A DNA stretch of 64,000 nucleotides from a virus (IMGVR_UViG_3300046692_000130:1-64000); one strand, 5' to 3'; numbered from the stretch's first letter, positions 1 to 18,784 are shown. Made by a program: numbers and translations. The notes: generated by a model not told the origin, from the letters alone.

Positions 1-345
1 GCCGTCCGTTATGTCTGGCGCGATCTCTGGCGCGTCTTTGTTTGCATCTATTGAAACGGTAAACGCATGCGAGACTTGCCCGTCAAGTAAAAACTTTGCT
101 GGCGCTGGCGTATATGCGTCGACGCTGGCCCGTTGCTGGCCCGTGTGGCGTCCGTGTGGCGTCCGTTATGCTCTGGCCCGTCCGTCTACGCTGGCGCGTC
201 TCTGGCCCGTTGTGGCGATCTCTGGCCCGTTGCTCTGGCCGTTGCTTGGCGCTGGCGCTGGCGCTGGCCGTCGACGCTGGCCCGTGTGGCGATCTCTAAA
301 GCGCTTGGCCGTTGCGCTGGCGCTGGCGCGATCTCTGCCACAAAG
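1..345. repeat. Short-word repeat block A (CTGGCCCGT, GCGCTGGC, GCGATCTCTGG, GTCGACG), A-poor on + strand
   Basis: Mosaic of recurring 5-11 nt words visible directly; reverse-complement vocabulary of the block at 3280-3770. Confidence 0.85.
56..86 (-). promoter_or_regulatory. Putative promoter TTGACG-N19-TACCGT firing out of the window to the left
   Basis: Same -35 and same 19-nt spacer as the promoters at 1332-1362 and 2858-2888. Confidence 0.5.
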
Positions 346-375
346 TAAAACGGCCAGACTCTAAAGTCTGACCGT
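342..375 (-). terminator. Rho-independent terminator, near-identical copy at 1436-1470
   Basis: Minus strand hairpin ACGGTCAGAC...GTCTGGCCGT followed by TTTACTTT, just downstream of ORF 400-1092. Confidence 0.75.
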
Positions 376-399
376 GTAACCGTGTGATGTTCTGGCGCG

Positions 400-1092
400 C
401 TATTGAATGACGTTTAGAAGCGCTTTATTTGCCTTTTTCACTCCACTGCCATGTGTTGCAAAAGCGATTACAGCGCCAGTATCGCGCAAACGGTCAGCAT
501 TCATGCAAAGCTTGCATGATAGGCAATTTGCAGCTTTGCCCGTTTGTTGTGGGCAAGGAATTACCCTTACTCCGTCGACAACTTTAGCGCTGGCCGTATC
601 GTGATATTCGACAACAATAGCAGCGCCAAAACCCTTTGCCATGGCGTCTTTTGTATCGGCGATAGTCTCGCAAGATGCAAGCACGGACACATCACGCCAT
701 GACTGGCGCGAAACATTACGCCATGCATGCGTGTAAGACCATACACTCTGGCCATGCTTGGCGCGATACTCTGACGCTGCAGCGCTAACCGTCGACGCGC
801 CAGCATCCGTTGTGCAATCTCCCACAACGTGTAGACGCAACGGACGGACGCCAGACAATTCACGGATTGCCAGCGCTTCGTTATCGGCCAGCGTCTGTAG
901 ACTCTGACCCTTTGCTGCAGTGTTGAGACGCTTTGTATGTATCGCCATAGGGCCAGACTCGGCGTAGCATCCTGACCCTTGAAACGGGCAACTAGACGGG
1001 CAAGTCTCTTGTGATGCATATGTGGCCGATACTTCACCAATTTTGATGTTGCCAGACTTCTCAATTGCCATAACTCCAATGTGCTTTGCCAT
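400..1092 (-). CDS. Cys-rich phage protein (DUF7227/gp88-like, possible Fe-S or metal binding)
   Basis: 230 aa; TCPSSCPFQGSGCYAESGP, RLHVVGD, YTH, CPQQ..NCLSCKLC motifs; AAACGGAGAT RBS. Confidence 0.75.
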   Translation of the reverse strand: MAKHIGVMAIEKSGNIKIGEVSATYASQETCPSSCPFQGSGCYAESGPMAIHTKRLNTAAKGQSLQTLADNEALAIRELSGVRPLRLHVVGDCTTDAGASTVSAAASEYRAKHGQSVWSYTHAWRNVSRQSWRDVSVLASCETIADTKDAMAKGFGAAIVVEYHDTASAKVVDGVRVIPCPQQTGKAANCLSCKLCMNADRLRDTGAVIAFATHGSGVKKANKALLNVIQ

Positions 1093-1165
1093 GATTTTTT
1101 GATCTCCGTTTTTCTTGTTTTATAGTGCGTTTTTTGTTGTCTGTATCGTTTGAGATTGCAGCAAA

Positions 1166-1291
1166 TTACCGCGTCTTTGTGGGATAAACCATGTGGCAGA
1201 GTAGACGGGCCAGACCGTGCAAAATGACGTTGTGGAACATAGCAAAGATAATCATTCCGCTGCAGAATATCGGGCCAGCAAAGTTAGTCAT
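1166..1291 (-). CDS. 41-aa hydrophobic peptide (absent from ORF track)
   Basis: MTNFAGPIFCSGMIIFAMFHNVILHGLARLLCHMVYPTKTR*; preceded by the AAACGGAGAT RBS and a promoter. Confidence 0.6.
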   Translation of the reverse strand: MTNFAGPIFCSGMIIFAMFHNVILHGLARLLCHMVYPTKTR

Positions 1292-1331
1292 GCGCTTTTG
1301 ATCTCCGTTTCTTGAAATGTGTTGCATAAAC

Positions 1332-1362
1332 AAAATAGCACGTTTTCTAACTCATCCGTCAA
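1332..1362 (-). promoter_or_regulatory. Putative promoter TTGACG-N19-TATTTT with extended -10 TG
   Basis: Homologous to 2858-2888, including the downstream GCAACACAT and the RBS. Confidence 0.65.
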
Positions 1363-1435
1363 GAAAAATAATTGTCTTATTTTGCGCGATCTCTGGCGCG
1401 ATCTCTGGCCGTTGCTCTGGCGCGATCTCTGCCAC

Positions 1436-1470
1436 AAAGTAAAACGGCCAGACTATAGCGTCTGACCGTT
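1436..1470 (-). terminator. Rho-independent terminator (copy of 342-375)
   Basis: Hairpin plus U-tract downstream of ORF 1523-1798. Confidence 0.75.
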
Positions 1471-1522
1471 GCGTCTAATGCCTATTCTTGGCCCGATACT
1501 GGCCCGTGTAGTGCTTGGCGCG

Positions 1523-1798
1523 CTAATCGTGAGTAATTACAGCATCTATGGCCCGTTGCATCGCATGGCGTCCGTGTGATGAAGGATAAAAGACGCCAAT
1601 CATGCGCGCTGGCGCATTGCGTCCGTCCGGTCTCAAAAAAGCTTTGTAAGGGTTTTCAGTGTCTGGCGTATCGTGGAATTTTTCGATGTGACCCAAAACG
1701 GCATTGCCTCTAAAAATAAGCCACACGTCAGACTCGGAACCTACACGCGCATCCTGCAGAACAACACGGACGCCAGATATTGTGTTTTCGTTTGCCAT
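1523..1798 (-). CDS. Hypothetical protein, 91 aa
   Basis: AAACGGAGAT RBS; lies between a promoter and a terminator. Confidence 0.7.
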   Translation of the reverse strand: MANENTISGVRVVLQDARVGSESDVWLIFRGNAVLGHIEKFHDTPDTENPYKAFLRPDGRNAPARMIGVFYPSSHGRHAMQRAIDAVITHD

Positions 1799-1851
1799 GG
1801 TAATAAATCTCCGTTTCCAATAGGTCTTTTGTTGTCGGTATAGGGTAAGAA

Positions 1852-2817
1852 TTACTGGCCAGCGCTGGCCCGTGTTACGCGTGTACCTGCAGCGCCGAGT
1901 CTAAAGCGCAATGGTTGCCCGTCTATTTTGTTCGGAACATACACTCTGGCCGAATTGCCTAGCAGGTACAAACGGCAATCTTCGAATCTAAAGACGTTGC
2001 CCGTTGCGTCCGTCCAATCCAAAACGATTCCGTCAAGCTGGCAATCTGTATCGTCTGGCGTCAGACCTAGCAAAGCACGGGCAGACGTTGCAGCATCGCG
2101 CTGGCGATCTAACTTAGCGGCCAGCGTCAGAGGATACGCTGCAATTGCCTTTTGACGGTCAGATTCTATTTGCTCTGGCGTGAATACAAGCGAATTGCCT
2201 TTAGCGTCGACGCCAAGCGCTGGCGCGATCTCTGGCAAGTTGTGGCCGTTTCTGTTTTCTTGATTGTGCAAAATGCTGTACGGAATGCCCGAGTTATTCG
2301 CAATGATCATATTTTGCGAATGATCAAAAGCAACCTTTTGCTCTGACCGTTTCGCCATGCATACCATGCAAACTGGCGCATTGCGAACATATACGCGATG
2401 ATCTCCACACGTCGACGCGAAGCAATCGGAGCATGAATCTTTAGCGTCTTTGCATGGCACATCTGCAGTAGAGACCGGATGCGCGCATATGTGGCAATGG
2501 TTGGCCCGTTGCTCTGCCACATAATCCGCATAACCTTCTATCGCATGCATGGCGTGAACATCAGACATCCGCGTCTTAGCATCCGAGTTATAGAAACGGA
2601 CGGTAATGTTTCCGCGAGTGTCAGACGTTGCACGGGCAAAGATTCCACACGCCAAAACAGATTCAACACGGATTGTGTTGTAAGACCACGAAGGAACTGC
2701 AGGATTCTCTTTTGCAATCGTTTGGATTGCGCGCCAGATTGCCCGTCTAACCGTTTCAAGTTTGCTTTGTGCATCCGTTGCGATCTCAATTACCGTGTAT
2801 TCGATTTTGCTTGCCAT
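1852..2817 (-). CDS. Hypothetical protein with central Zn-finger-like Cys/His cluster, 321 aa
   Basis: Start moved to ATG 2817 behind the AAACGGAGAT RBS; CHIC..C..CSDC..CGDH..CMVC. Confidence 0.75.
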   Translation of the reverse strand: MASKIEYTVIEIATDAQSKLETVRRAIWRAIQTIAKENPAVPSWSYNTIRVESVLACGIFARATSDTRGNITVRFYNSDAKTRMSDVHAMHAIEGYADYVAEQRANHCHICAHPVSTADVPCKDAKDSCSDCFASTCGDHRVYVRNAPVCMVCMAKRSEQKVAFDHSQNMIIANNSGIPYSILHNQENRNGHNLPEIAPALGVDAKGNSLVFTPEQIESDRQKAIAAYPLTLAAKLDRQRDAATSARALLGLTPDDTDCQLDGIVLDWTDATGNVFRFEDCRLYLLGNSARVYVPNKIDGQPLRFRLGAAGTRVTRASAGQ

Positions 2818-2857
2818 GGTCTCTAATCTCCGTTTTTGTTTTATGTGTTGCACATCC

Positions 2858-2888
2858 AAAATAGCATGCAATCTAACGTATCCGTCAA
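2858..2888 (-). promoter_or_regulatory. Putative promoter TTGACG-N19-TATTTT overlapped by palindrome CGTCA-N10-TGACG
   Basis: CGTCAATTTATTTTCTGACG occurs at 2883 and again at 3261. Confidence 0.65.
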
Positions 2889-3279
2889 TTTATTTTCTGA
2901 CGGTATTACGTCAAGCATTCAAATTGAATGATTTTGATCTCATCTATATATAGCGAAAAAAAATCTCATGCGATACATGTTTACTAAATAGTAAAAATAT
3001 AGGCATTTTTAGTGAGTTTTCCACAAGCAATTAAACGCTATTAGAGACGCCACACGGACGCGGATGTCTGACCGTGTAGGGTAGGACGTTTCTTTTAGTC
3101 GACGTCTGTACGGGCCAGCAAACGGCCACAGCGTTTAAATTCGTTTTCGCTTTTCATACGCTTTTGACCTATTTTTCCTATTCGCCAGATTAGCTTTTGT
3201 GTCAATAGCTTTTTTTGAGACTCACGGAAAAAAGTTACAGTCAAGAAAAAAGTATGATTGCGTCAATTTATTTTCTGAC

Positions 3280-3770
3280 GCGCCAGACGGACGGCCACAC
3301 GTCGACGCCAGAGCAACGGCCAGCGCCAGACGCCAGCGCGCATGTATGCACGGACACGGACGGGCCAGACCGTACCCTATACGCGCCAGAGATCGCGCAA
3401 CGGACAACGGCCAGACCATTAGGACAACGGACGGCCAGACGGACAACGGCCAGCGCCAGACGTCGACGCGCCAAGCGATACAGACGGGCCAGTCTCGGGC
3501 CAGAGATCGCGCAACGGTCAGACGGCCAGAGCATGGCAACGGACGCCACACGGGCCAGTATGCGCGCCAGAGTACAGACGCCAGACACGGGCCAGCGCCA
3601 GAGTATGTAGACGTCAGACGGACGGGCCAGACCATGTGGCAGAGATCGCGCAACGGCCAGCGCGCCAGCATAGATAGAAGGTACGTATAGACGGACGGAC
3701 ACGGGCCAGCATACGGGCCAGATACAGACATAGTAGAAGGTGAGATATCAGACCATGGCGTCTATGCACG
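3280..3770. repeat. Short-word repeat block B (GCCAG, ACGGGCCAG, AGAGATCGCGC, ACGGACG), T-poor on + strand
   Basis: More than 20 GCCAG words; 3539-3558 is the exact reverse complement of 136-155. Confidence 0.85.
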
Positions 3771-3848
3771 GTCTTAGATAGGCAAAGTCTTTGCTTTGCT
3801 TAGACTTAGCACGGGCCAAGCATGGCCAAGCATACGCCAAGCACAACC

Positions 3849-4125
3849 TAAGTTATTGATTCTATTAGAGACCACGGCAATCCACGAAAGACTTCGTAGA
3901 TAGACGCCTATTAGATTCAATGACATACGGGCAAGCGCTTTGTAACCTATTGAATTCATTACGTTTGAATCTACGAACTTCATCGTACGAACATCATCGT
4001 AGGCTAAGTTGTTCATTTTGAATGAGATAGCGGGGGTGGGTTCAAAATCGCATTATCAGACCTACTCGCGACCGACGCGCAGGTTGAATTTACACACCTG
4101 CACATCATTTAGAATCAAGGAGATA
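3849..4125 (+). other. Putative cos / packaging initiation region with IHF-like sites
   Basis: GGGGGTGGGTTCAAAATC..GACCGACGCGCAGGTTGAATTTACAC resembles cos regions of HK97-type phages as I recall them; IHF consensus YAANNNNTTGATW perfect at 3849, one mismatch at 3943, 4005, 4113; sharp compositional boundary. Confidence 0.6.
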
Positions 4126-4423
4126 GGCAATTTCAGCACTTTCGCGCCCTCGGCCCCGGTGATGGTCTGCTTGGTTGTCATGGTGGGATTCATTGATCCT
4201 AAAAGAGTTCTGCCCCAATGTCAAGCATAAAGTGTGCAGTAATCACTGCATACATTTTCTTGTCAAATTAGGGTAATTTTTATGCTTATTGAGGCAACCA
4301 TACCTTCAGGGCAGACCGGCGCAGCCACGAGGCGCTAATGAGCAGGGCGAGGCACTCTAGGCGATGCTCTGACCCCCATGCTACGGCTTGGATCCACAGG
4401 TAGGTTTCGCCTATGATTCGCCC

Positions 4424-6227: not shown

Positions 6228-6446
6228 TCAAGACATCTTTGTAAAATAGATGCTTGCAAGCTGGTCATCGATTGTGAGAACACCCGTCACCTTGAACACG
6301 CCGTCCAGTTCAAGATCTCCATCGGATTGGATTGACAGAAGATCACCTGATTTAGCTGGTCTCAATCCCTCAAACTCGGCTGGGAGACCCCCGGGGAAAG
6401 CCAACTTATACCGGCCATTCCCCATCTCGATGATCCGTTGCTTCAT
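6228..6446 (-). CDS. Hypothetical protein, probably leaderless
   Basis: TTGCAA-N17-TACTGT ends 6 nt before ATG 6446. Confidence 0.6.
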   Translation of the reverse strand: MKQRIIEMGNGRYKLAFPGGLPAEFEGLRPAKSGDLLSIQSDGDLELDGVFKVTGVLTIDDQLASIYFTKMS

Positions 6447-6515
6447 TTGCCAACAGTAGCATGATACTTGACTCTTTGCAACAAGCCTCGGCTGTATCGT
6501 CTGAGTAAGCACAAC

Positions 6516-7406
6516 TCAACCGATTTTGTCTGTACCACTCTTGTCGATATACGCCCAGTACTTCACATCCGCGCCGGGAAAGTGCGTGAACCAGACTTCG
6601 CCGTTCCTGCAGTCGCGCACCATTTGAGCGATTCCAGAGTCACCGCAGGTATGCAGCACAAGGATCTTCTCGCTCACTTCGTAGTCTCCGCGCCTCACGA
6701 ACGTGGGCAGGACAGTGACCGGGTTCCATGGAATGCCAGCACGACGCTCGTCGTTCAACTTCGCAATCTCAGCATTGAGCTTTGCAATCTCTGCCTCTTG
6801 CATGTCGAATGCAATTTTACGCTCGGCGGCTTCCTTGGAGACGGTTGGGTCGTTCGCGATCCGAATGTTTTGTTCGACGAGCTTGGCAAGGGCCGCTCGA
6901 TGGTTGCCGTCCTTGCAGCAGCCCCAGACTGTGGCGAGGTAGTCGTCGACCTGAACGAGACACGCCCTCGCTTCGTTCATTTCGTTCTGCAGCTTGGTCG
7001 CCCGGGCCTCGGCTTCCTTCTTCGTCCAATGCTCCCGGTAGAACTTGTTCTCTGCGTCAGTCATACGGTCGGCCAGCTTCCTGATGTGGTCGCGCTGTTC
7101 GTAGTTGGTGAACCGGCGAGGCTGGCCGTTGTACATCGTGTACGACTTGAGCTTGTCTTCGGCAAGTAGTGCGCGGGAGTTTCGCACCGTGCGCTTCTTC
7201 CAATCGATATGGACACCAGCCTTCTGCAGCGCCGACGTCAGCGTGTCTCTCAGTGACGTATTTGCAATGATGAGATCTTCGACATCTGTCCTGAGTTCCT
7301 GCGCCCGATCCTGCCACGCAAACTGACGAGCCAGTGTTGAGATGATCTTCCGCTTGCGCCTAAAGAATGGAATGGGTACGGAACGGGCCTTCAGTTCGTG
7401 CTCCAC
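6516..7406 (-). CDS. Coiled-coil hypothetical protein
   Basis: Long ORF in the operon; start uncertain (GTG 7406). Confidence 0.65.
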   Translation of the reverse strand: MEHELKARSVPIPFFRRKRKIISTLARQFAWQDRAQELRTDVEDLIIANTSLRDTLTSALQKAGVHIDWKKRTVRNSRALLAEDKLKSYTMYNGQPRRFTNYEQRDHIRKLADRMTDAENKFYREHWTKKEAEARATKLQNEMNEARACLVQVDDYLATVWGCCKDGNHRAALAKLVEQNIRIANDPTVSKEAAERKIAFDMQEAEIAKLNAEIAKLNDERRAGIPWNPVTVLPTFVRRGDYEVSEKILVLHTCGDSGIAQMVRDCRNGEVWFTHFPGADVKYWAYIDKSGTDKIG

Positions 7407-7428
7407 CTTGACGGCTATGTAGGGTCTG

Positions 7429-7641
7429 CTAGACAACCTTGACCTCCAGCTTCCGATCATCAACAGCGATGAGCTTCGCATCCTTTGGGTTCGCGAGATC
7501 CACTTCGAACGTCAGCTTGTGCTCGTAGCCAATGAACGAGAAATCCCGTGCTGCCTCTCCAGTGAGACCAAGCTGGTCAGCCTTGCTGTACATGTAATCG
7601 CCGTCGGCGTGGAGATGCACGTCGATAGTGGTCTTAGCCAT
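7429..7641 (-). CDS. Hypothetical protein
   Basis: AAGGA RBS, overlaps the upstream stop. Confidence 0.65.
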   Translation of the reverse strand: MAKTTIDVHLHADGDYMYSKADQLGLTGEAARDFSFIGYEHKLTFEVDLANPKDAKLIAVDDRKLEVKVV

Positions 7642-15565: not shown

Positions 15566-15639
15566 AGGTCGGTAAGCTAACGGCAAACTGTCTGGCTCCA
15601 AACCAGAACTTGCGGGTTCAAATCCTGCTCGACCTGCCA
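15566..15639 (+). tRNA. tRNA-Trp(CCA)
   Basis: Acceptor AGGTCGG/TCGACCT, anticodon arm TCTGG-CTCCAAA-CCAGA, GTTCAAA T-loop, encoded CCA. Confidence 0.93.
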
Positions 15640-15708
15640 AACATCAACAACAGACCCGCCACGCCTCTCACGGAAGCGCAACTGGCGGGTTTTCTATTTG
15701 GAGCAAAC

Positions 15709-16089
15709 TTGCCATCTCGAAGTCAACGACCATGCTCGGTTCCCGGGTGTACGAACCTGTGCGCGAACAGATGGTGCGAGATCCACGAGAAGGACAAGAC
15801 GGTCACACGGAAGTACGACCTCTACAGGGGCAGCAGCACTGAGAGAGGCTACGGCGGCGAGTGGCGCAAGGTTCGCCTTCAGATCCTGAAGCGCGACAAC
15901 TTCCTCTGCGTTGCCTGTCTGGCCACTGGCCGACCGACCACGGCAACTGACGTCGATCACATCGTGCCTATGGCGCGTGGCGGTGCTCGACTGGATCCTA
16001 ACAACCTGCAGTCACTTTGCAGTGTGTGCCACAAACGCAAGACCTATGAGCACGATGGGGCATTTGGCAACGACGTAAGCGAGATCTAA
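15709..16089 (+). CDS. Terminase-associated HNH endonuclease (HK97 gp74-like)
   Basis: Start reassigned to TTG 15709 (GGAG RBS); RPC..PGC, RGY..W, VDHIVP..GG..NLQSLC..CH..KT. Confidence 0.9.
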   Translation: MPSRSQRPCSVPGCTNLCANRWCEIHEKDKTVTRKYDLYRGSSTERGYGGEWRKVRLQILKRDNFLCVACLATGRPTTATDVDHIVPMARGGARLDPNNLQSLCSVCHKRKTYEHDGAFGNDVSEI

Positions 16090-16103: not shown

Positions 16104-16667
16104 ATGACGTGCATAGTAGGTCTCGTCGATAAAGACGGTGTTGTGCTTGGAGGAGATTCAGCGGGTGTCGATGAGTCGTTCGCTATAGAGTCGCGCACAG
16201 ACCCAAAAGTCTTCACGCGTGGCCCATTTGTCATTGGCTTCGCTGGCAGCTTCCGCATTGGGCAATTGCTGCGCTACAAGCTCACGACGCCTCAACATCA
16301 GATCAAGCTCGAAGATCACGAGTACATGGCGACACGTTTCGTGGACGCGGTACGAAAGTGCCTGAAGGACAACGGCGCGGTGAGTGATGACTTCAAGGCA
16401 GAGACCGGCGGTACCTTCTTGGTCGTCTATCGCAACAAGCTGTACTCGATTCAAGAAGACTACCAAGTCGCTTGTGTGCAGGATTCGTTCGACGCAATCG
16501 GGTGTGGATCTGACATCGCGAAGGGCGCACTTTACGTGCTCCCGAAAGACATGACGACTGAAGATCGAGCGCTGAAGGCACTACAGGCTGCTGAACGATT
16601 CAGCGCCGGTGTGCGCGGCCCGTTCCATCTCGTCCGAAGTAAAAAACAACGAAAGAAAGTGAAGTAA
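16104..16667 (+). CDS. HslV/proteasome-beta-like Ntn-hydrolase peptidase
   Basis: M-TCIVG N-terminal Thr, GGDS, PKVF, GFAGS, AIGCGS. Confidence 0.8.
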   Translation: MTCIVGLVDKDGVVLGGDSAGVDESFAIESRTDPKVFTRGPFVIGFAGSFRIGQLLRYKLTTPQHQIKLEDHEYMATRFVDAVRKCLKDNGAVSDDFKAETGGTFLVVYRNKLYSIQEDYQVACVQDSFDAIGCGSDIAKGALYVLPKDMTTEDRALKALQAAERFSAGVRGPFHLVRSKKQRKKVK

Positions 16668-17092: not shown

Positions 17093-18784
17093 ATGAACAT
17101 CTCGATCAATCACGCGCACGACGCGCACCAATACGCACATGACGTCGTCGCTGGAAAGATCACGTCCTGTAAGTGGGTCAAGCTTGCATGCGAACGACAC
17201 CTGAAAGGTCTCGACGAAGCAAAGCAGGATAGCTACCAGTGGGAGTTCGATGAAGCTAAAGCGAACAAGGTTTGCAAGTTCATGGAACTGCTCCCACATG
17301 TCAAAGGCAAATGGGCTGCTAAAGCTGAAACAGTACGGCTAGAACCATGGCAGAAATTCGTAATTGCGAACATGTTCGGATGGGTCGATAAGACCACCGG
17401 CCTTCGCAAGTACCGCATCGTCTACATCTGCGTTCCTCGTAAGAACGGCAAGAGCTTCTTGGCTGCTGGCATCGGGTTGTACTTGTTCGCGCTCGATGGT
17501 GAGTTTGGCGCTGAGGTTTATTCCGGTGCAACCACTGAGAAGCAAGCGTGGGAAATTTTCCGACCGGCGCAACAGATGTGTGAACGCACACCTGCACTGC
17601 GCGAACGTCTCGGGATCGCGGTCAACGCGAAGACACTGACGATTGAAAGCAACGGCTCCCGTATGTTGCCTGTCATCGGATCTCCCGGTGATGGTGCCTC
17701 GCCGTCTGGCTCCCTCATCGACGAATACCACGAGCATCCTACAGACGTCCTGCTCGACACCATGATCACTGGTATGGGTGCTCGTGAGCAGCCTCTGGCG
17801 ATCATCACTACGACTGCTGGCTCAAACACTGCTGGCCCTTGCCGAATGCTCCAGAGTGATCTGGAGAAGGTTCTGGAAGGGACTTTTACGAACAACGAAC
17901 TCTTCGGTGTGATCTACACCATCGACGAGGGCGACGACTGGCAAAGCGAGGAAGCACTTCGCAAAGCGAATCCGAACTACGACGTATCAGTATCGGGCGA
18001 CTTCTTGAAAGCGCGTGTCGCTGAGGCAGTACAGTCGAGTCGCAAACAAAACATCACCAAGACGAAGCACCTGAACGTCTGGGTAAACGCAACGAGTGCA
18101 TTCTTCAACGTAGCCAAGTGGATGACACTGGCCGACGCGAATCTACACGAAGACCAGTTCATTGGTCAGCCTTGCGTTACCGGTCTCGACCTTGCGTCAC
18201 AGATCGACATCGCAGCCTCAGTGAAAGTCTTCATGAGGCAGATAGATGGCGTCGAACACTACTACATCTTTGGGAAGTTTTATATCCCAACGGATACGGT
18301 GAACCTGCCGCAGAATCAGCACTACCAGCAGTGGCACCATGAAGAGCAACTCATAGCTACTCCCGGCAGTGAGACCGACTTCAGCTTTATCAAGCGAGGA
18401 ATCCTCGAAGACGCAGAGAAGTTCGCCGTCAAAGAGTTGGCGTTCGATAAATATCAAGCCACTCACTTGAAGCAGGAGATCGCGGCAGAGACATCCATCC
18501 TGACCACCGAGATCCCGCAGACACCCTTGATGTTGTCTGAGCCTATGAAGCAGCTTGAGGCAATGATCATCTCCGGTCGCATCCACCATGACGGCAACCC
18601 TGTGATGACGTGGATGATCGGCAACACCGTTGCCAGAGTCGATGCGAATGAGAATGTCTTTCCACGTAAGGAGAGACCTGAGAACAAAATAGACGGCGTC
18701 TCTGCCTTACTGAATGCGCTCGTTAGAGTTCGCTCTGCGATTACCGCACTTGATACAGAGTTCTTCGACTTCAACGGATTTTGA
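17093..18784 (+). CDS. terL: Terminase large subunit (HK97-type)
   Basis: PRKNGKS Walker A, IDEYHEH, ITTTAG, GLDLA, KIDG. Confidence 0.97.
   Translation: MNISINHAHDAHQYAHDVVAGKITSCKWVKLACERHLKGLDEAKQDSYQWEFDEAKANKVCKFMELLPHVKGKWAAKAETVRLEPWQKFVIANMFGWVDKTTGLRKYRIVYICVPRKNGKSFLAAGIGLYLFALDGEFGAEVYSGATTEKQAWEIFRPAQQMCERTPALRERLGIAVNAKTLTIESNGSRMLPVIGSPGDGASPSGSLIDEYHEHPTDVLLDTMITGMGAREQPLAIITTTAGSNTAGPCRMLQSDLEKVLEGTFTNNELFGVIYTIDEGDDWQSEEALRKANPNYDVSVSGDFLKARVAEAVQSSRKQNITKTKHLNVWVNATSAFFNVAKWMTLADANLHEDQFIGQPCVTGLDLASQIDIAASVKVFMRQIDGVEHYYIFGKFYIPTDTVNLPQNQHYQQWHHEEQLIATPGSETDFSFIKRGILEDAEKFAVKELAFDKYQATHLKQEIAAETSILTTEIPQTPLMLSEPMKQLEAMIISGRIHHDGNPVMTWMIGNTVARVDANENVFPRKERPENKIDGVSALLNALVRVRSAITALDTEFFDFNGF

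Follow-up and report, generated by a model that had tools for sequence, protein, structure and literature searches.

Convergent arrays of short polar words in a sharply bounded island of a soil phage genome

Two dense, non-coding arrays of short polar words, inverted relative to each other, make up the two arms of a 4.56-kb island with sharp borders (genome 93806-4024). The phage is of the Acidobacteria type, and the island sits in its long leftward early/replication arm. The arrays are probably protein-binding arrays of some kind, read at the level of the DNA. The window that we analysed is a stretch of 64,000 nucleotides (IMGVR_UViG_3300046692_000130:1-64000) from a 94,594 bp soil phage contig. 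The ends of this contig overlap, 94365-94594 matching 1-230 with one mismatch, and hence the contig is self-closing and the first array, block A, is cut by the junction.

Layout of the island

1-35, plus strand: end of the left half of block A, its upstream part lying across the junction at genome 94030-94364 (overlap, word listing)
36-99, unstranded: 65-nt stretch without words that interrupts block A (72-nt gap in TGGC spacing)
100-345, plus strand: right half of block A, A-poor, with sTCTGGCsCGT words, every one forward (composition, word listing)
350-375, minus strand: intrinsic terminator T2 of the leftward DUF7227 gene, adjoining block A; 11-bp stem, then TTTACTTTGT (terminator search)
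400-1092, minus strand: 230-aa gene of the DUF7227 / GP88 family, with Cys clusters (profile match, E 1.5e-33)
1129-1155, minus strand: copy of the phage-wide motif CTGTATCG(T)TTGAGAT, 5' of the DUF7227 gene (motif search)
1166-1291, minus strand: 41-aa hydrophobic ORF with the island's ribosome-binding site ACGGAGAT upstream (sequence reading)
1317-1362, minus strand: promoter-like element TTGACGGAT...TATTTT, 80% identical to the element at 2843-2888 (repeat comparison)
1380-1520, plus strand: small patch with forward words (1380-1436), terminator T1 (1443-1470, minus strand) and words (1483-1520) (repeat comparison)
1523-1798, minus strand: 91-aa orphan gene with a ACGGAGAT ribosome-binding site (homology search)
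1852-2817, minus strand: 321-aa orphan gene, its middle part Cys-rich (homology search; AF2 model, pLDDT 39)
2883-2902, unstranded: 20-nt near-palindrome CGTCA-N10-TGACG, overlapping the TTGACG of the leftward promoter 2914-2887 (repeat search)
2903-3260, unstranded: AT-rich centre, 31-45% GC, with a TTTTCCACA box at 3017 and a 19-mer (3146-3164) common to Tunturi_3 (composition, k-mer comparison)
3261-3280, unstranded: identical second copy of the near-palindrome, at the inner edge of block B (repeat search)
3280-3770, minus strand: block B, plus strand T-poor, block A's words all on the minus strand (composition, word listing)
3787-3861, unstranded: right subterminal segment with an AAGTCT...AGACTT hairpin, CGGGCCA, three copies of GGCCAAGCAT and an IHF-consensus site at 3849-3861 (sequence comparison)
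4003-4024, plus strand: right border, a 22-nt direct repeat identical at 19/22 positions to 93806-93827, with a switch of vocabulary (repeat and k-mer comparison)
4196-4253, minus strand: hairpin (4232-4253) and promoter TTGACA-17-TAGGAT leading left into block B, outside the island (sequence search)

Taken across the junction, block A comprises 94030-94364 and 1-345 and is 680 nt long; its A content is 8.4%, and the T content of block B is 8.8%. A preliminary description of the sequence, which had called the blocks A-poor and T-poor, was accurate on this point. GC is 69% at 101-300, with an AT skew of -0.65, and the AT skew over 3301-3600 is +0.58 to +0.64. In 200-nt windows along the genome, a base fraction below 10% was found in these two arrays only, the median minimum base fraction being 0.20. 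The minus strand of the non-word stretch at 36-99 carries TTGACG...TACCGT, which might be a leftward promoter. The smaller patch of words described at 1380-1520 is also real: a 56-nt stretch of it repeats the unit of terminator and words at 320-375 with 93% identity, and a few words stand directly 3' of the stop codon of the 91-aa gene.

The cassette within the island consists of four genes with their own promoters and terminators, and the arrays adjoin these transcription signals (terminators 375-350 and 1470-1443, promoter 2914-2887). The DUF7227 protein has a weak NrdG-like match, and the homologues of its gene in Tunturi_1 and Tunturi_2 are annotated as 'DNA methyltransferase'. Further genome copies of the extended CTGTATCG(T)TTGAGAT motif were found at 86864 and 91313. 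The orphan 321-aa and 91-aa proteins have no recognisable DNA-binding domain. The 321-aa gene, which lies beside the arrays, was checked as a possible initiator; it has no family match, and its AF2 model, at a pLDDT of 39, is useless. Outside the island, the promoter at 4224-4196 is the best sigma-70-like promoter of the region.

Word grammar and non-coding nature of the arrays

Both arrays are built on the consensus s-T-CTGGC-s-C-G/T-T, which the words GTCCGT and GCGATCT accompany; the core is constant across the arrays, and the linkers and spacing vary. Block A contains 47 TGGC[CG] cores in the forward and one in the reverse orientation, as against none forward and 27 reverse in block B. The position matrices of the two arrays are alike (r = 0.92 outside the anchor) and the ranking of word types is identical; one word grammar serves both arrays. 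The words of block B are indeed the reverse complements of those of block A: 87 12-mers are common to A and the reverse complement of B, compared with 0.27 (maximum 7) in first-order Markov simulations, and none is common to the two in direct orientation. The polarity switches once, in the AT-rich centre at 2903-3260. Outside the island TGGCCCGT occurs three times forward and twice in reverse, and the words are not over-represented in the rest of the phage.

The arrays are neither tandem repeats nor CRISPR-like repeat-spacer arrays, in agreement with the preliminary description. TRF reported only patches of 2-4 copies with periods of 6-40, and the TGGC spacing varies between 6 and 72 nt without a prevailing period (autocorrelation <=0.35). 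The word spacings of 6-20 nt are irregular and show no helical phasing. The exact 20-nt inverted pair at 136-155 and 3539-3558 is present as described. When the order of the units was shuffled, the longest A/B match was 20.3 +/- 2.4 nt and reached >=20 in 58% of shuffles. Since shuffled units give equally long matches, the pair is a by-product of the common vocabulary and not a special pairing site, and long-range pairing through it gains no specific support.

Long ORFs run through both arrays and the six frames are nearly without stops, but base composition alone, with A or T scarce, is sufficient to keep these frames open. The words are spread over the three reading frames (14:13:10 and 10:8:6), and no ACGGAGAT-type ribosome-binding site was found upstream of the array ORFs, which argues against a repetitive protein gene. 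A structured non-coding RNA was rejected as well: folding of both strands of both arrays was no better than that of shuffled sequence (z = +1.91, +0.02, +0.60 and +0.15), and an Rfam search of the arrays gave no match at E <= 0.01. The earlier view of the blocks as polar, non-coding elements acting at the DNA level is thus upheld.

Borders, vocabulary and relatives

The 22-nt direct repeat that marks the borders coincides with the change of vocabulary and has no further occurrence in the genome; its motif is conserved in this phage group, with a third occurrence inside the island (3849) and others in Tunturi_3 and Tunturi_4. Each arm is followed on its outer side by ~220 nt that contain a hairpin and IHF-consensus bend sites, the right subterminal segment (3787-3861) mirroring genome 93860-93940. 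Of the seven genome matches to WATCAANNNNTTR, four lie in the two subterminal segments.

Six 4-mers are avoided throughout the island, with 0-4 occurrences per 500 nt inside versus 15-39 outside. The avoidance reaches into the genes (1 observed versus 19 +/- 3.8 expected, and 4 versus 15.6 +/- 3.1), in which the array words are also enriched about two-fold beyond codon usage. Plain avoidance of restriction sites does not account for this vocabulary, since common palindromes are enriched (GGCC, 13.7 per kb versus 3.9; GTCGAC, 2.2 versus 0.7) or present (GATC).

In two distant relatives, Tunturiibacter phages 3 and 4, word-rich regions without annotated genes lie at roughly the same map position (1.7 kb in Tunturi_3, 2.4 kb in Tunturi_4), and both relatives share an extended IHF-like motif with this phage. 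These regions are positional analogues; their words are unrelated to those of the island, and in Tunturi_4 an opposite-polarity pair, CACACAGAC then GTCTGTGTG, makes the polarity divergent whereas that of the island is convergent. Arrays of the same word were observed in unrelated contigs, in intergenic control regions, after terminators and beside iteron clusters; as these were found by searching for that word, the identity of their words reflects ascertainment and is not independent evidence.

Possible functions of the arrays

The near-absolute polarity, the single matrix, the 12-mers shared in inverted orientation only and the non-coding nature of the arrays all count in favour of protein binding, as do the adjacent transcription signals, the sharp borders, the clustering of IHF-like sites, the polarity switch in AT-rich sequence and the Tunturi analogues. 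Among the functions suggested in the preliminary description, oriented binding or loading sites fit best. More specifically, though only tentatively, our best reading is a control or origin-type element, in which the arrays would be oriented sites for protein binding and may have a pairing role. A sequence-specific DNA-binding protein would read the closely packed single-orientation words on double-strand DNA, and this putative protein would coat each convergent arm in one direction. Bends outside the arms could let both coated arms meet, and the arm-arm complex might then mark and insulate the island. This pairing is modelled on iteron clusters (P1 incC/incA, mini-F) or on the centromere arrays parC1/parC2 of pB171. 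Against such binding, no candidate for the binding protein was found among the island proteins; against an origin, the k-mer avoidance of the island's own genes is left unexplained. An origin could instead lie at 13.6 or 15.2 kb, where further DnaA-box-like TTTTCCACA sites are present, and the GC skew is uninformative.

The iteron clusters of P1 incC-repA-incA and mini-F ori2 flank an initiator gene and pair by handcuffing. The island is similar in its two clusters of direct-repeat binding words on either side of a gene, its AT-rich segment (31-37% GC at 2801-3100), its IHF-consensus sites at the borders, such bend sites being common at iteron origins, and its words, which like iterons are replicon-specific. 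However, iterons are 17-22 bp long and present in 4-9 copies at a regular ~two helical turns, whereas the island words are of 6-10 nt, in 27-47 copies at irregular spacings of 6-20 nt, and no Rep-family protein was recognised in the island. Type Ib centromeres also consist of many very short packed words whose orientation matters: in pB171, parC1 has 17 and parC2 18 hexamers on the two sides of parAB, and omega binds the heptad arrays of pSM19035. The likeness extends to two operon-flanking arrays paired by a binding protein. A partition centromere of this type was nevertheless rejected: neither the island nor its immediate neighbourhood yielded a ParA-type ATPase or a ribbon-helix-helix protein, and the island proteins gave no ParA or ParB/ParG match in Pfam, PHROGs or NCBIfam.

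A bolder proposal, which we consider unlikely, is that the island represents a DNA domain of a new, sequence-defined kind: about 4.6 kb, including its genes, in a restricted vocabulary and enclosed by convergent polar arrays with bend sites. If this were true, the island would be treated unlike the remaining genome in the cell; one protein might coat its whole length, for example, or it might be the first part exposed at ejection and be hidden from host nucleases. The borders of the domain would then be set by the arrays, acting as loading or stop sites.

Among alternatives to binding arrays, a genome-end or DNA-ejection signal of the T5 injection-stop or T7 repeat type is rather improbable. 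The arrays would then lie at or near the ends or at the border of a first-entering segment, and the island would be a pre-early module whose vocabulary spares it attack by host nucleases. The closest published anatomy is that of T5-like phages, in which two inverted 131-bp repeat regions, 1.9-4.3 kb apart, lie around ORFs of low conservation, within a region that is untranslated and rich in repeats (Davison, bioRxiv 10.1101/866236). Here too, inverted non-coding repeat regions a few kb apart bracket variable ORFs; the likeness extends to an anatomy that is kept when the enclosed genes are not, and to bending proteins proposed to act there (bioRxiv 10.1101/866236). The T5 regions differ in being single 131-bp inverted repeats with paired DnaA boxes, whereas the island has arrays of 27-47 short words; TTWTNCACA occurs in the island at 2265 and 3017, neither in an array, and its one TTTTCCACA box (3017) is in the AT-rich centre. 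The T5 repeats also lie within a 10-kb terminal repeat with known ends, while the island is known from a self-closing contig.

In T7, the short-repeat arrays SRL and SRR, which Dunn and Studier are said to have described in 1983, reportedly adjoin the terminal repeat. These are irregularly spaced, non-coding copies of a short word in one orientation on both sides of a short unique segment, just as block A runs from words through its 65-nt island to words again. They reportedly number about a dozen heptamers and go with a T7-type terminase, whereas the TerL of this phage is of the HK97 type and accompanied by an HNH gene, and a second array in opposite orientation lies 3 kb off. The host-type promoters, terminators and orphan genes of the island, and a restricted vocabulary with sharp borders that reaches into genes, would suit an ejection signal, as would the contig break within block A; a second contig (G001) likewise begins within its array, ~0.9 kb from its HNH-TerS-TerL genes. 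Assemblers break at repeats, however, which accounts for the break in block A, and a de Bruijn graph does not reveal physical ends. The only packaging genes found, the HNH / TerL set (PF03354, PF20441), occupy 15.6-18.8 kb. This places them 11-12 kb away from the island and speaks for an HK97-type cos in their vicinity. GGCC and GTCGAC are enriched and GATC is present rather than avoided, and the corresponding regions of Tunturi_3 and Tunturi_4 have no annotated genes.

It is improbable that the arrays are a degenerate satellite with no sequence-specific function, in which short A-less units grew by slippage in a non-coding region that is tolerant and hyperplastic, and then underwent inverted duplication. 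The local tandem patches of 2-4 copies, the pure runs (GTGGCCC)n and (GCTGGCCCGT)n in other contigs, and the unrelated words at the same map position in relatives agree with such an origin. Yet the core is preserved despite varying linkers and the A and B matrices agree; slippage cannot explain word enrichment together with depletion of six 4-mers inside genes, and the mirror-image subterminal segments with clustered IHF-like sites argue for a built element.

We also think it improbable that the words are polar sites for a DNA-tracking enzyme (Chi-like for RecBCD/AddAB, KOPS-like for FtsK, or a Ter-like fork barrier), their convergence marking a protected or targeted point. The strict strand polarity with a switch at one point is indeed shared with Chi, KOPS and Ter, the GC-rich words (CTGGCG, GCTGGC) partly resemble GCTGGTGG, and another array (contig G002) includes CGTGGTGG. 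Chi, KOPS and Ter are, however, single sites dispersed genome-wide, one of which suffices for known function, as against two local arrays of a word that is not enriched elsewhere in this phage; no Chi, KOPS or Ter precedent is known for arrays of 27-47 sites.

A mobile element, in which the arrays would be inverted terminal arms with many sites for a transposase or recombinase, is very improbable: the 22-nt flanking direct repeats, the inverted arms with IHF-like sites at either end and a composition foreign to the remaining genome speak for it, but no transposase or recombinase domain was detected in the island proteins (Pfam, PHROGs, NCBIfam), neither an empty site nor a second copy of the island was found when looked for, the border motif belongs to the phage group, and the island contains the phage-wide CTGTATCG promoter-type motif. 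There is equally little likelihood that the arrays act as RNA (sponge, leader, or duplexes between A and B transcripts) or encode repetitive proteins: the leftward promoter 4224-4196 does aim into block B and long ORFs span both arrays, but the word phases, ribosome-binding-site, folding and Rfam results described above oppose this, and the terminators at 1470-1443 and 375-350 part B from A on leftward transcripts.

Two word arrays of opposite polarity across the contig junction

The record is 94,594 bp long, and the window covers its bases 1-64000. Bases 1-230 recur at 94365-94594 with one mismatch (CTGGCCCGT vs CTGTCCCGT), and the contig map therefore closes as a circle of 94,364 bp which carries one polymorphic site at this 230-nt overlap. 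Closure of the map gives no information on the physical ends; the record is classed as linear and 77% complete despite it.

All that the preliminary description had stated as fact about the two word arrays, block A and block B, was reproduced on recheck, and block A is an A-poor word array as described. Its extent of ~100-340 had to be revised, since the contig junction cuts the block and it is twice as long as was supposed. Block A comprises 94030-94364 plus 1-345 (680 nt, 8.4% A), broken up by a 65-nt non-word stretch at 36-99, and block B spans 3280-3770 (8.8% T). Using 200-nt windows over the whole genome, a base fraction below 10% was found in these two blocks only. The core word TGGC[C/G] has 47 forward copies and one reverse copy in block A; in block B it has 27 reverse copies and no forward one. 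Genome-wide, TGGCCCGT has 22 forward and 12 reverse copies, 19 and 10 of which lie within 93800 to 4020.

The two arrays share one grammar. The TGGC-anchored consensus is s-T-C-TGGC-s-C-G/T-T; outside the anchor, the position matrix of A has a correlation of 0.92 with that of the reverse-complemented B, and the ranking of word types is alike in both (CTGGCCCGT > CTGGCCGT and CTGGCGCG > CTGGCG). Block A and the reverse complement of B have 87 12-mers in common, against 0.27 in Markov simulations, and none is common to the two in direct orientation. The feature is real and statistically extreme. The exact 20-nt inverted pair turned out to be no special site: shuffles of unit order match it, yielding a longest common stretch of 20.3 +/- 2.4 nt, and a designed pairing site of 20 nt was rejected.

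Terminase region of the phage
15610-16089, plus strand: HNH endonuclease gene
17093-18784, plus strand: TerL gene (PF03354 and PF20441)

The portal, protease and capsid genes are also on the plus strand. A long minus-strand arm from ~15.0 kb encodes DNA polymerase A, dUTPase and RNase H, and proceeds leftward across the arrays and the region between them, continuing to 93.6 kb and lower coordinates. Among cultured phages, Tunturi_4 and Tunturi_3 are the nearest relatives (DNA polymerase identity 30-33%); both are phages of Acidobacteria (PMC11924767). We also observed a proteasome-subunit-like protein (16104-16667; PF00227, E 6e-6), encoded with the HNH endonuclease on one side and the presumed small terminase gene on the other, and an Rfam abiF RNA motif (15655-15690; 41.2 bits vs a gathering score of 37) directly past a tRNA-Trp and in the 5' portion of the listed HNH ORF.

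A bounded island with a restricted vocabulary

The arrays are the arms of a 4.56-kb island, which runs from 93806 to 4024 across the junction.

Features of the island
93806-93827 and 4003-4024: 22-nt direct repeat; both compositional borders coincide with its copies
minus strand, all island genes: 321-aa orphan, 91-aa orphan, 41-aa hydrophobic ORF, DUF7227/GP88
1470-1443 and 375-350, minus strand: strong intrinsic terminators, each followed directly by array words (56-nt repeat D6)
2883 and 3261: identical 20-nt near-palindromes flanking an AT-rich centre
1141, plus strand: CTGTATCG motif

The two copies of the border repeat are identical at 19 of 22 positions (alignment score 29 vs 18.8 +/- 2.1 in shuffles), and it has no further copies genome-wide with up to 5 substitutions allowed. 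On the minus strand the repeat conforms to the IHF consensus WATCAANNNNTTR, and four of the seven IHF-consensus matches in the genome fall in the ~220-nt segments between borders and arrays. Both segments hold mirror-image AAGTCT...AGACTT hairpins adjoining a TGGCCCG word. Word polarity flips in the AT-rich centre between the near-palindromes, and two near-identical promoter-like elements lie within the island on the minus strand. The island also contains a copy of the phage-wide CTGTATCG(T)TTGAGAT motif, indicating that it is wired into the phage's own regulation. With its conserved right flank (TTTGAGAT or CTAAAGATT) the motif has 14 plus-strand copies (window 1141, 6492, 15089, 15299 and 55029; genome 70304-91409), which are dense at 81-91 kb, and it probably serves the leftward arm as a phage-specific promoter or operator.

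Between ~93,810 and 4,020, 4-mers which are common elsewhere in the genome nearly disappear, and the switch is completed inside one 250-nt step on each side.

Avoided 4-mers in the island
CCCC and GGGG: 0 seen, about 17 expected
CACC and GGTG: 2 seen, 42 expected
CCTC and GAGG: 2 seen, 34 expected
AGCC and GGCT: 1 to 3 seen, by the borders chosen, 36 expected

The island holds 2,354 distinct 6-mers, compared with 3,207 +/- 90 in windows of equal length elsewhere, and its coding parts alone hold 1,766 vs 2,242 +/- 71. Synonymous codons were then shuffled per gene with protein and codon usage held constant, over the three genes in 400-2817 and with 4-mers counted on both strands. Six avoided 4-mers occur once in the 321-aa island gene, where 19 +/- 3.8 are expected from the shuffle, and four times in the DUF7227 gene (15.6 +/- 3.1 expected), and array words are about two-fold enriched inside island genes (p <= 0.003). 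Since the depletion goes beyond the synonymous-codon shuffles, codon bias is not the explanation, and DNA-level selection acts inside the coding sequence of island genes. Plain restriction-site avoidance does not explain it either, as common palindromes persist in the island: GATC occurs there, and GGCC and GTCGAC are enriched. The constrained order of synonymous codons implies that the island as a whole is subject to some reader or avoidance at the DNA level.

Searched against 5.8 billion clusters and 1.84 billion representatives, the 321-aa and 91-aa island proteins proved to be orphans; the sole relatives of the island's own proteins are on two short independent Logan contigs (2,648 and 1,116 nt) of the same phage. 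For the 321-aa island protein the predicted fold was unusable (pLDDT 39) and the Atlas gave no match. The DUF7227/GP88 protein (400-1092) has two cysteine clusters, C-x3-C-x6-C near its N terminus and C-x2-C-x2-C near its C terminus, and it weakly matches NrdG-like proteins (E 0.009). Its homologues in Tunturi_1 and Tunturi_2 are annotated 'DNA methyltransferase', but it may instead be a radical-SAM-like enzyme.

Related phages and the possible role of the arrays

No close relative of the island was found: megablast of its DNA against phage records gave 0 matches, distant blastn gave short DUF7227 matches only, and neither viral nor metagenome contigs yielded a relative of the flanking 321-aa protein (6516-7481). 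A tie between the arrays and the DUF7227 gene was rejected, as 11 viral loci with homologues, as well as Tunturi_1 and Tunturi_2, are without adjoining arrays. The gene order DNA polymerase, RNase H, conserved small gene, exonuclease is common to Tunturi_4 and Tunturi_3, and the largest unannotated stretch of each (2.4 kb and 1.7 kb, respectively) separates the polymerase cluster from the conserved small gene.

Unannotated stretches in the distant relatives
PP885687 64452-66825 (L215:20453-22826): Tunturi_4
PP885686 78676-80337 (L216:28677-30338): Tunturi_3

In the Tunturi_4 stretch, a T-poor array of the CACACAGAC type is followed after ~150 nt by its reverse complement, an A-poor array of (GTGTGTGTCT)n. 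The Tunturi_3 stretch has AATAAACGTACTC as four units in tandem, along with AGACCT/TAGAGA words; the IHF-like motif occurs in it twice, and a 19-mer of it exactly matches window 3146-3164. These word-rich, gene-free regions of the two distant relatives lie at roughly the map position of the arrays. What the group conserves is thus a gene-free, word-rich region whose words are phage-specific; in the present phage, a four-gene cassette sits between the two polarities.

We consider it probable that the arrays are DNA-level protein-binding arrays of some kind, on account of their one-way orientation, a grammar common to both arms and a core that stays invariant while the linkers vary, together with the terminators and promoters abutting the arrays, the bend-site clusters outside and the AT-rich centre. 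Such binding sites would build a large nucleoprotein complex on double-stranded DNA. One weak point is that a binding protein for the arrays was not found among the island proteins. That they serve a control or origin-type pairing role is a more tentative proposal. Paired clusters on either side of a gene, as here, occur in the iteron replicons of P1 and mini-F and in type Ib centromeres (pB171), but iterons are longer, sparser and more regular than the words of this phage, and a control or origin role leaves the vocabulary inside genes unaccounted for. GC skew carries no origin signal. A DnaA-box-like 9-mer, TTTTCCACA, has five copies in the genome (window 3017, 13643, 13726 and 15226; genome 73994): one is in the AT-rich centre of the island, and three, including an inverted pair 83 nt apart, occupy the gaps that precede the DNA polymerase gene and separate the two arms. 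They are candidates for origin or operator sites.

The main rival, which we regard as unlikely, is a T5-like genome-end or first-entering segment linked to ejection. It would account naturally for the sharp borders, host-type promoters, orphan genes and separate selective regime, and the T5 left terminal repeat is the closest published anatomy, having two inverted untranslated repeat regions 1.9-4.3 kb apart which have non-conserved ORFs between them and are associated with the injection stop (bioRxiv 10.1101/866236). However, given the HNH-TerL arrangement, a cos site is expected 11-12 kb from the island. HNH-associated terminases are, as a rule, of the cos type. The contig break in block A is uninformative, and the analogous regions of Tunturi_3 and Tunturi_4 have no annotated genes. 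Functionless satellite DNA is an improbable reading of the arrays, and polar tracking sites are likewise improbable. As had been described, the arrays are neither tandem repeats nor repeat-spacer arrays: TRF finds patches of 2-4 copies only, and word spacings run from 6 to 72 nt with no dominant period. A mobile element is highly improbable; the extended IHF-like motif TAGAATCAAYAACTTR, with three copies in Tunturi_3 and one in Tunturi_4, is a motif of the phage group and not the scar of one insertion. An RNA or coding function is just as remote. In the long ORFs, words are spread over all three phases (14:13:10 for A, 10:8:6 for B), so that the blocks are not ordinary repetitive protein genes. 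The six frames are almost stop-free because one strand lacks A and the other T, and the ribosome-binding site ACGGAGAT, present before all four real island genes, is absent before the array ORFs. Structured RNA was rejected on z-scores of +1.9, 0.0, +0.6 and +0.15 for the four strands against dinucleotide shuffles, and no Rfam family matches the arrays.

Large phages of the T5, T7 and Felix O1 types have large non-coding, repeat-rich regions that are conserved and mostly unexplained. The feature is best filed with such repeat-rich control or end regions, its unusual extra being the vocabulary constraint that runs through the enclosed genes. It is an unusually clean case, with a single word grammar, near-absolute polarity and mirror-image borders, and its selective signature extends into protein-coding sequence, where it can be measured. 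With analogous regions in Tunturi_3 and Tunturi_4, both of them grown in culture on Tunturiibacter, it is bench-testable in Acidobacteria, a phylum with, to our knowledge, almost no phage molecular biology.

Word arrays in other contigs

Word-pair scans returned mostly pentapeptide-repeat genes and simple heptamer microsatellites. Besides these, three further arrays were found, in the contigs G001, G002 and L308.

Positions of two of the further arrays
L213:1-705: G001, IMGVR_UViG_3300046533_000456, 52.8 kb
L137:3380-3565 and 6440-6930: G002, IMGVR_UViG_3300037603_000132, 64.7-kb provirus

G001 begins inside an A-poor array (3% A) of 22 GCCCGT words, followed by nine ACGGGC words in a T-poor AAACGGGCC array, seven iteron-like CCCCCTATAGTGGTGAC-type repeats and then genes; its HNH-TerS-TerL genes are at the opposite end of the contig, some 0.9 kb from it. 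In G002, a terminator is followed by a 490-nt A-poor array with GCGATCTC among its words, ~1 kb past the 3' end of a VapE-type primase-helicase gene. L308 has a terminator, then ~25 copies of GCTGGCCCGT, nine AATTTGAYC repeats and a promoter. As all three were found via a word search, the common word reflects ascertainment; what is informative is the position of the arrays after terminators and beside iteron clusters. The G002 provirus also has six tandem 30-nt units with GGCGATCTCGTGCCC upstream of a TTGACGGAT promoter, and 40 copies of GCGATCTC, compared with 0-3 for a control word.
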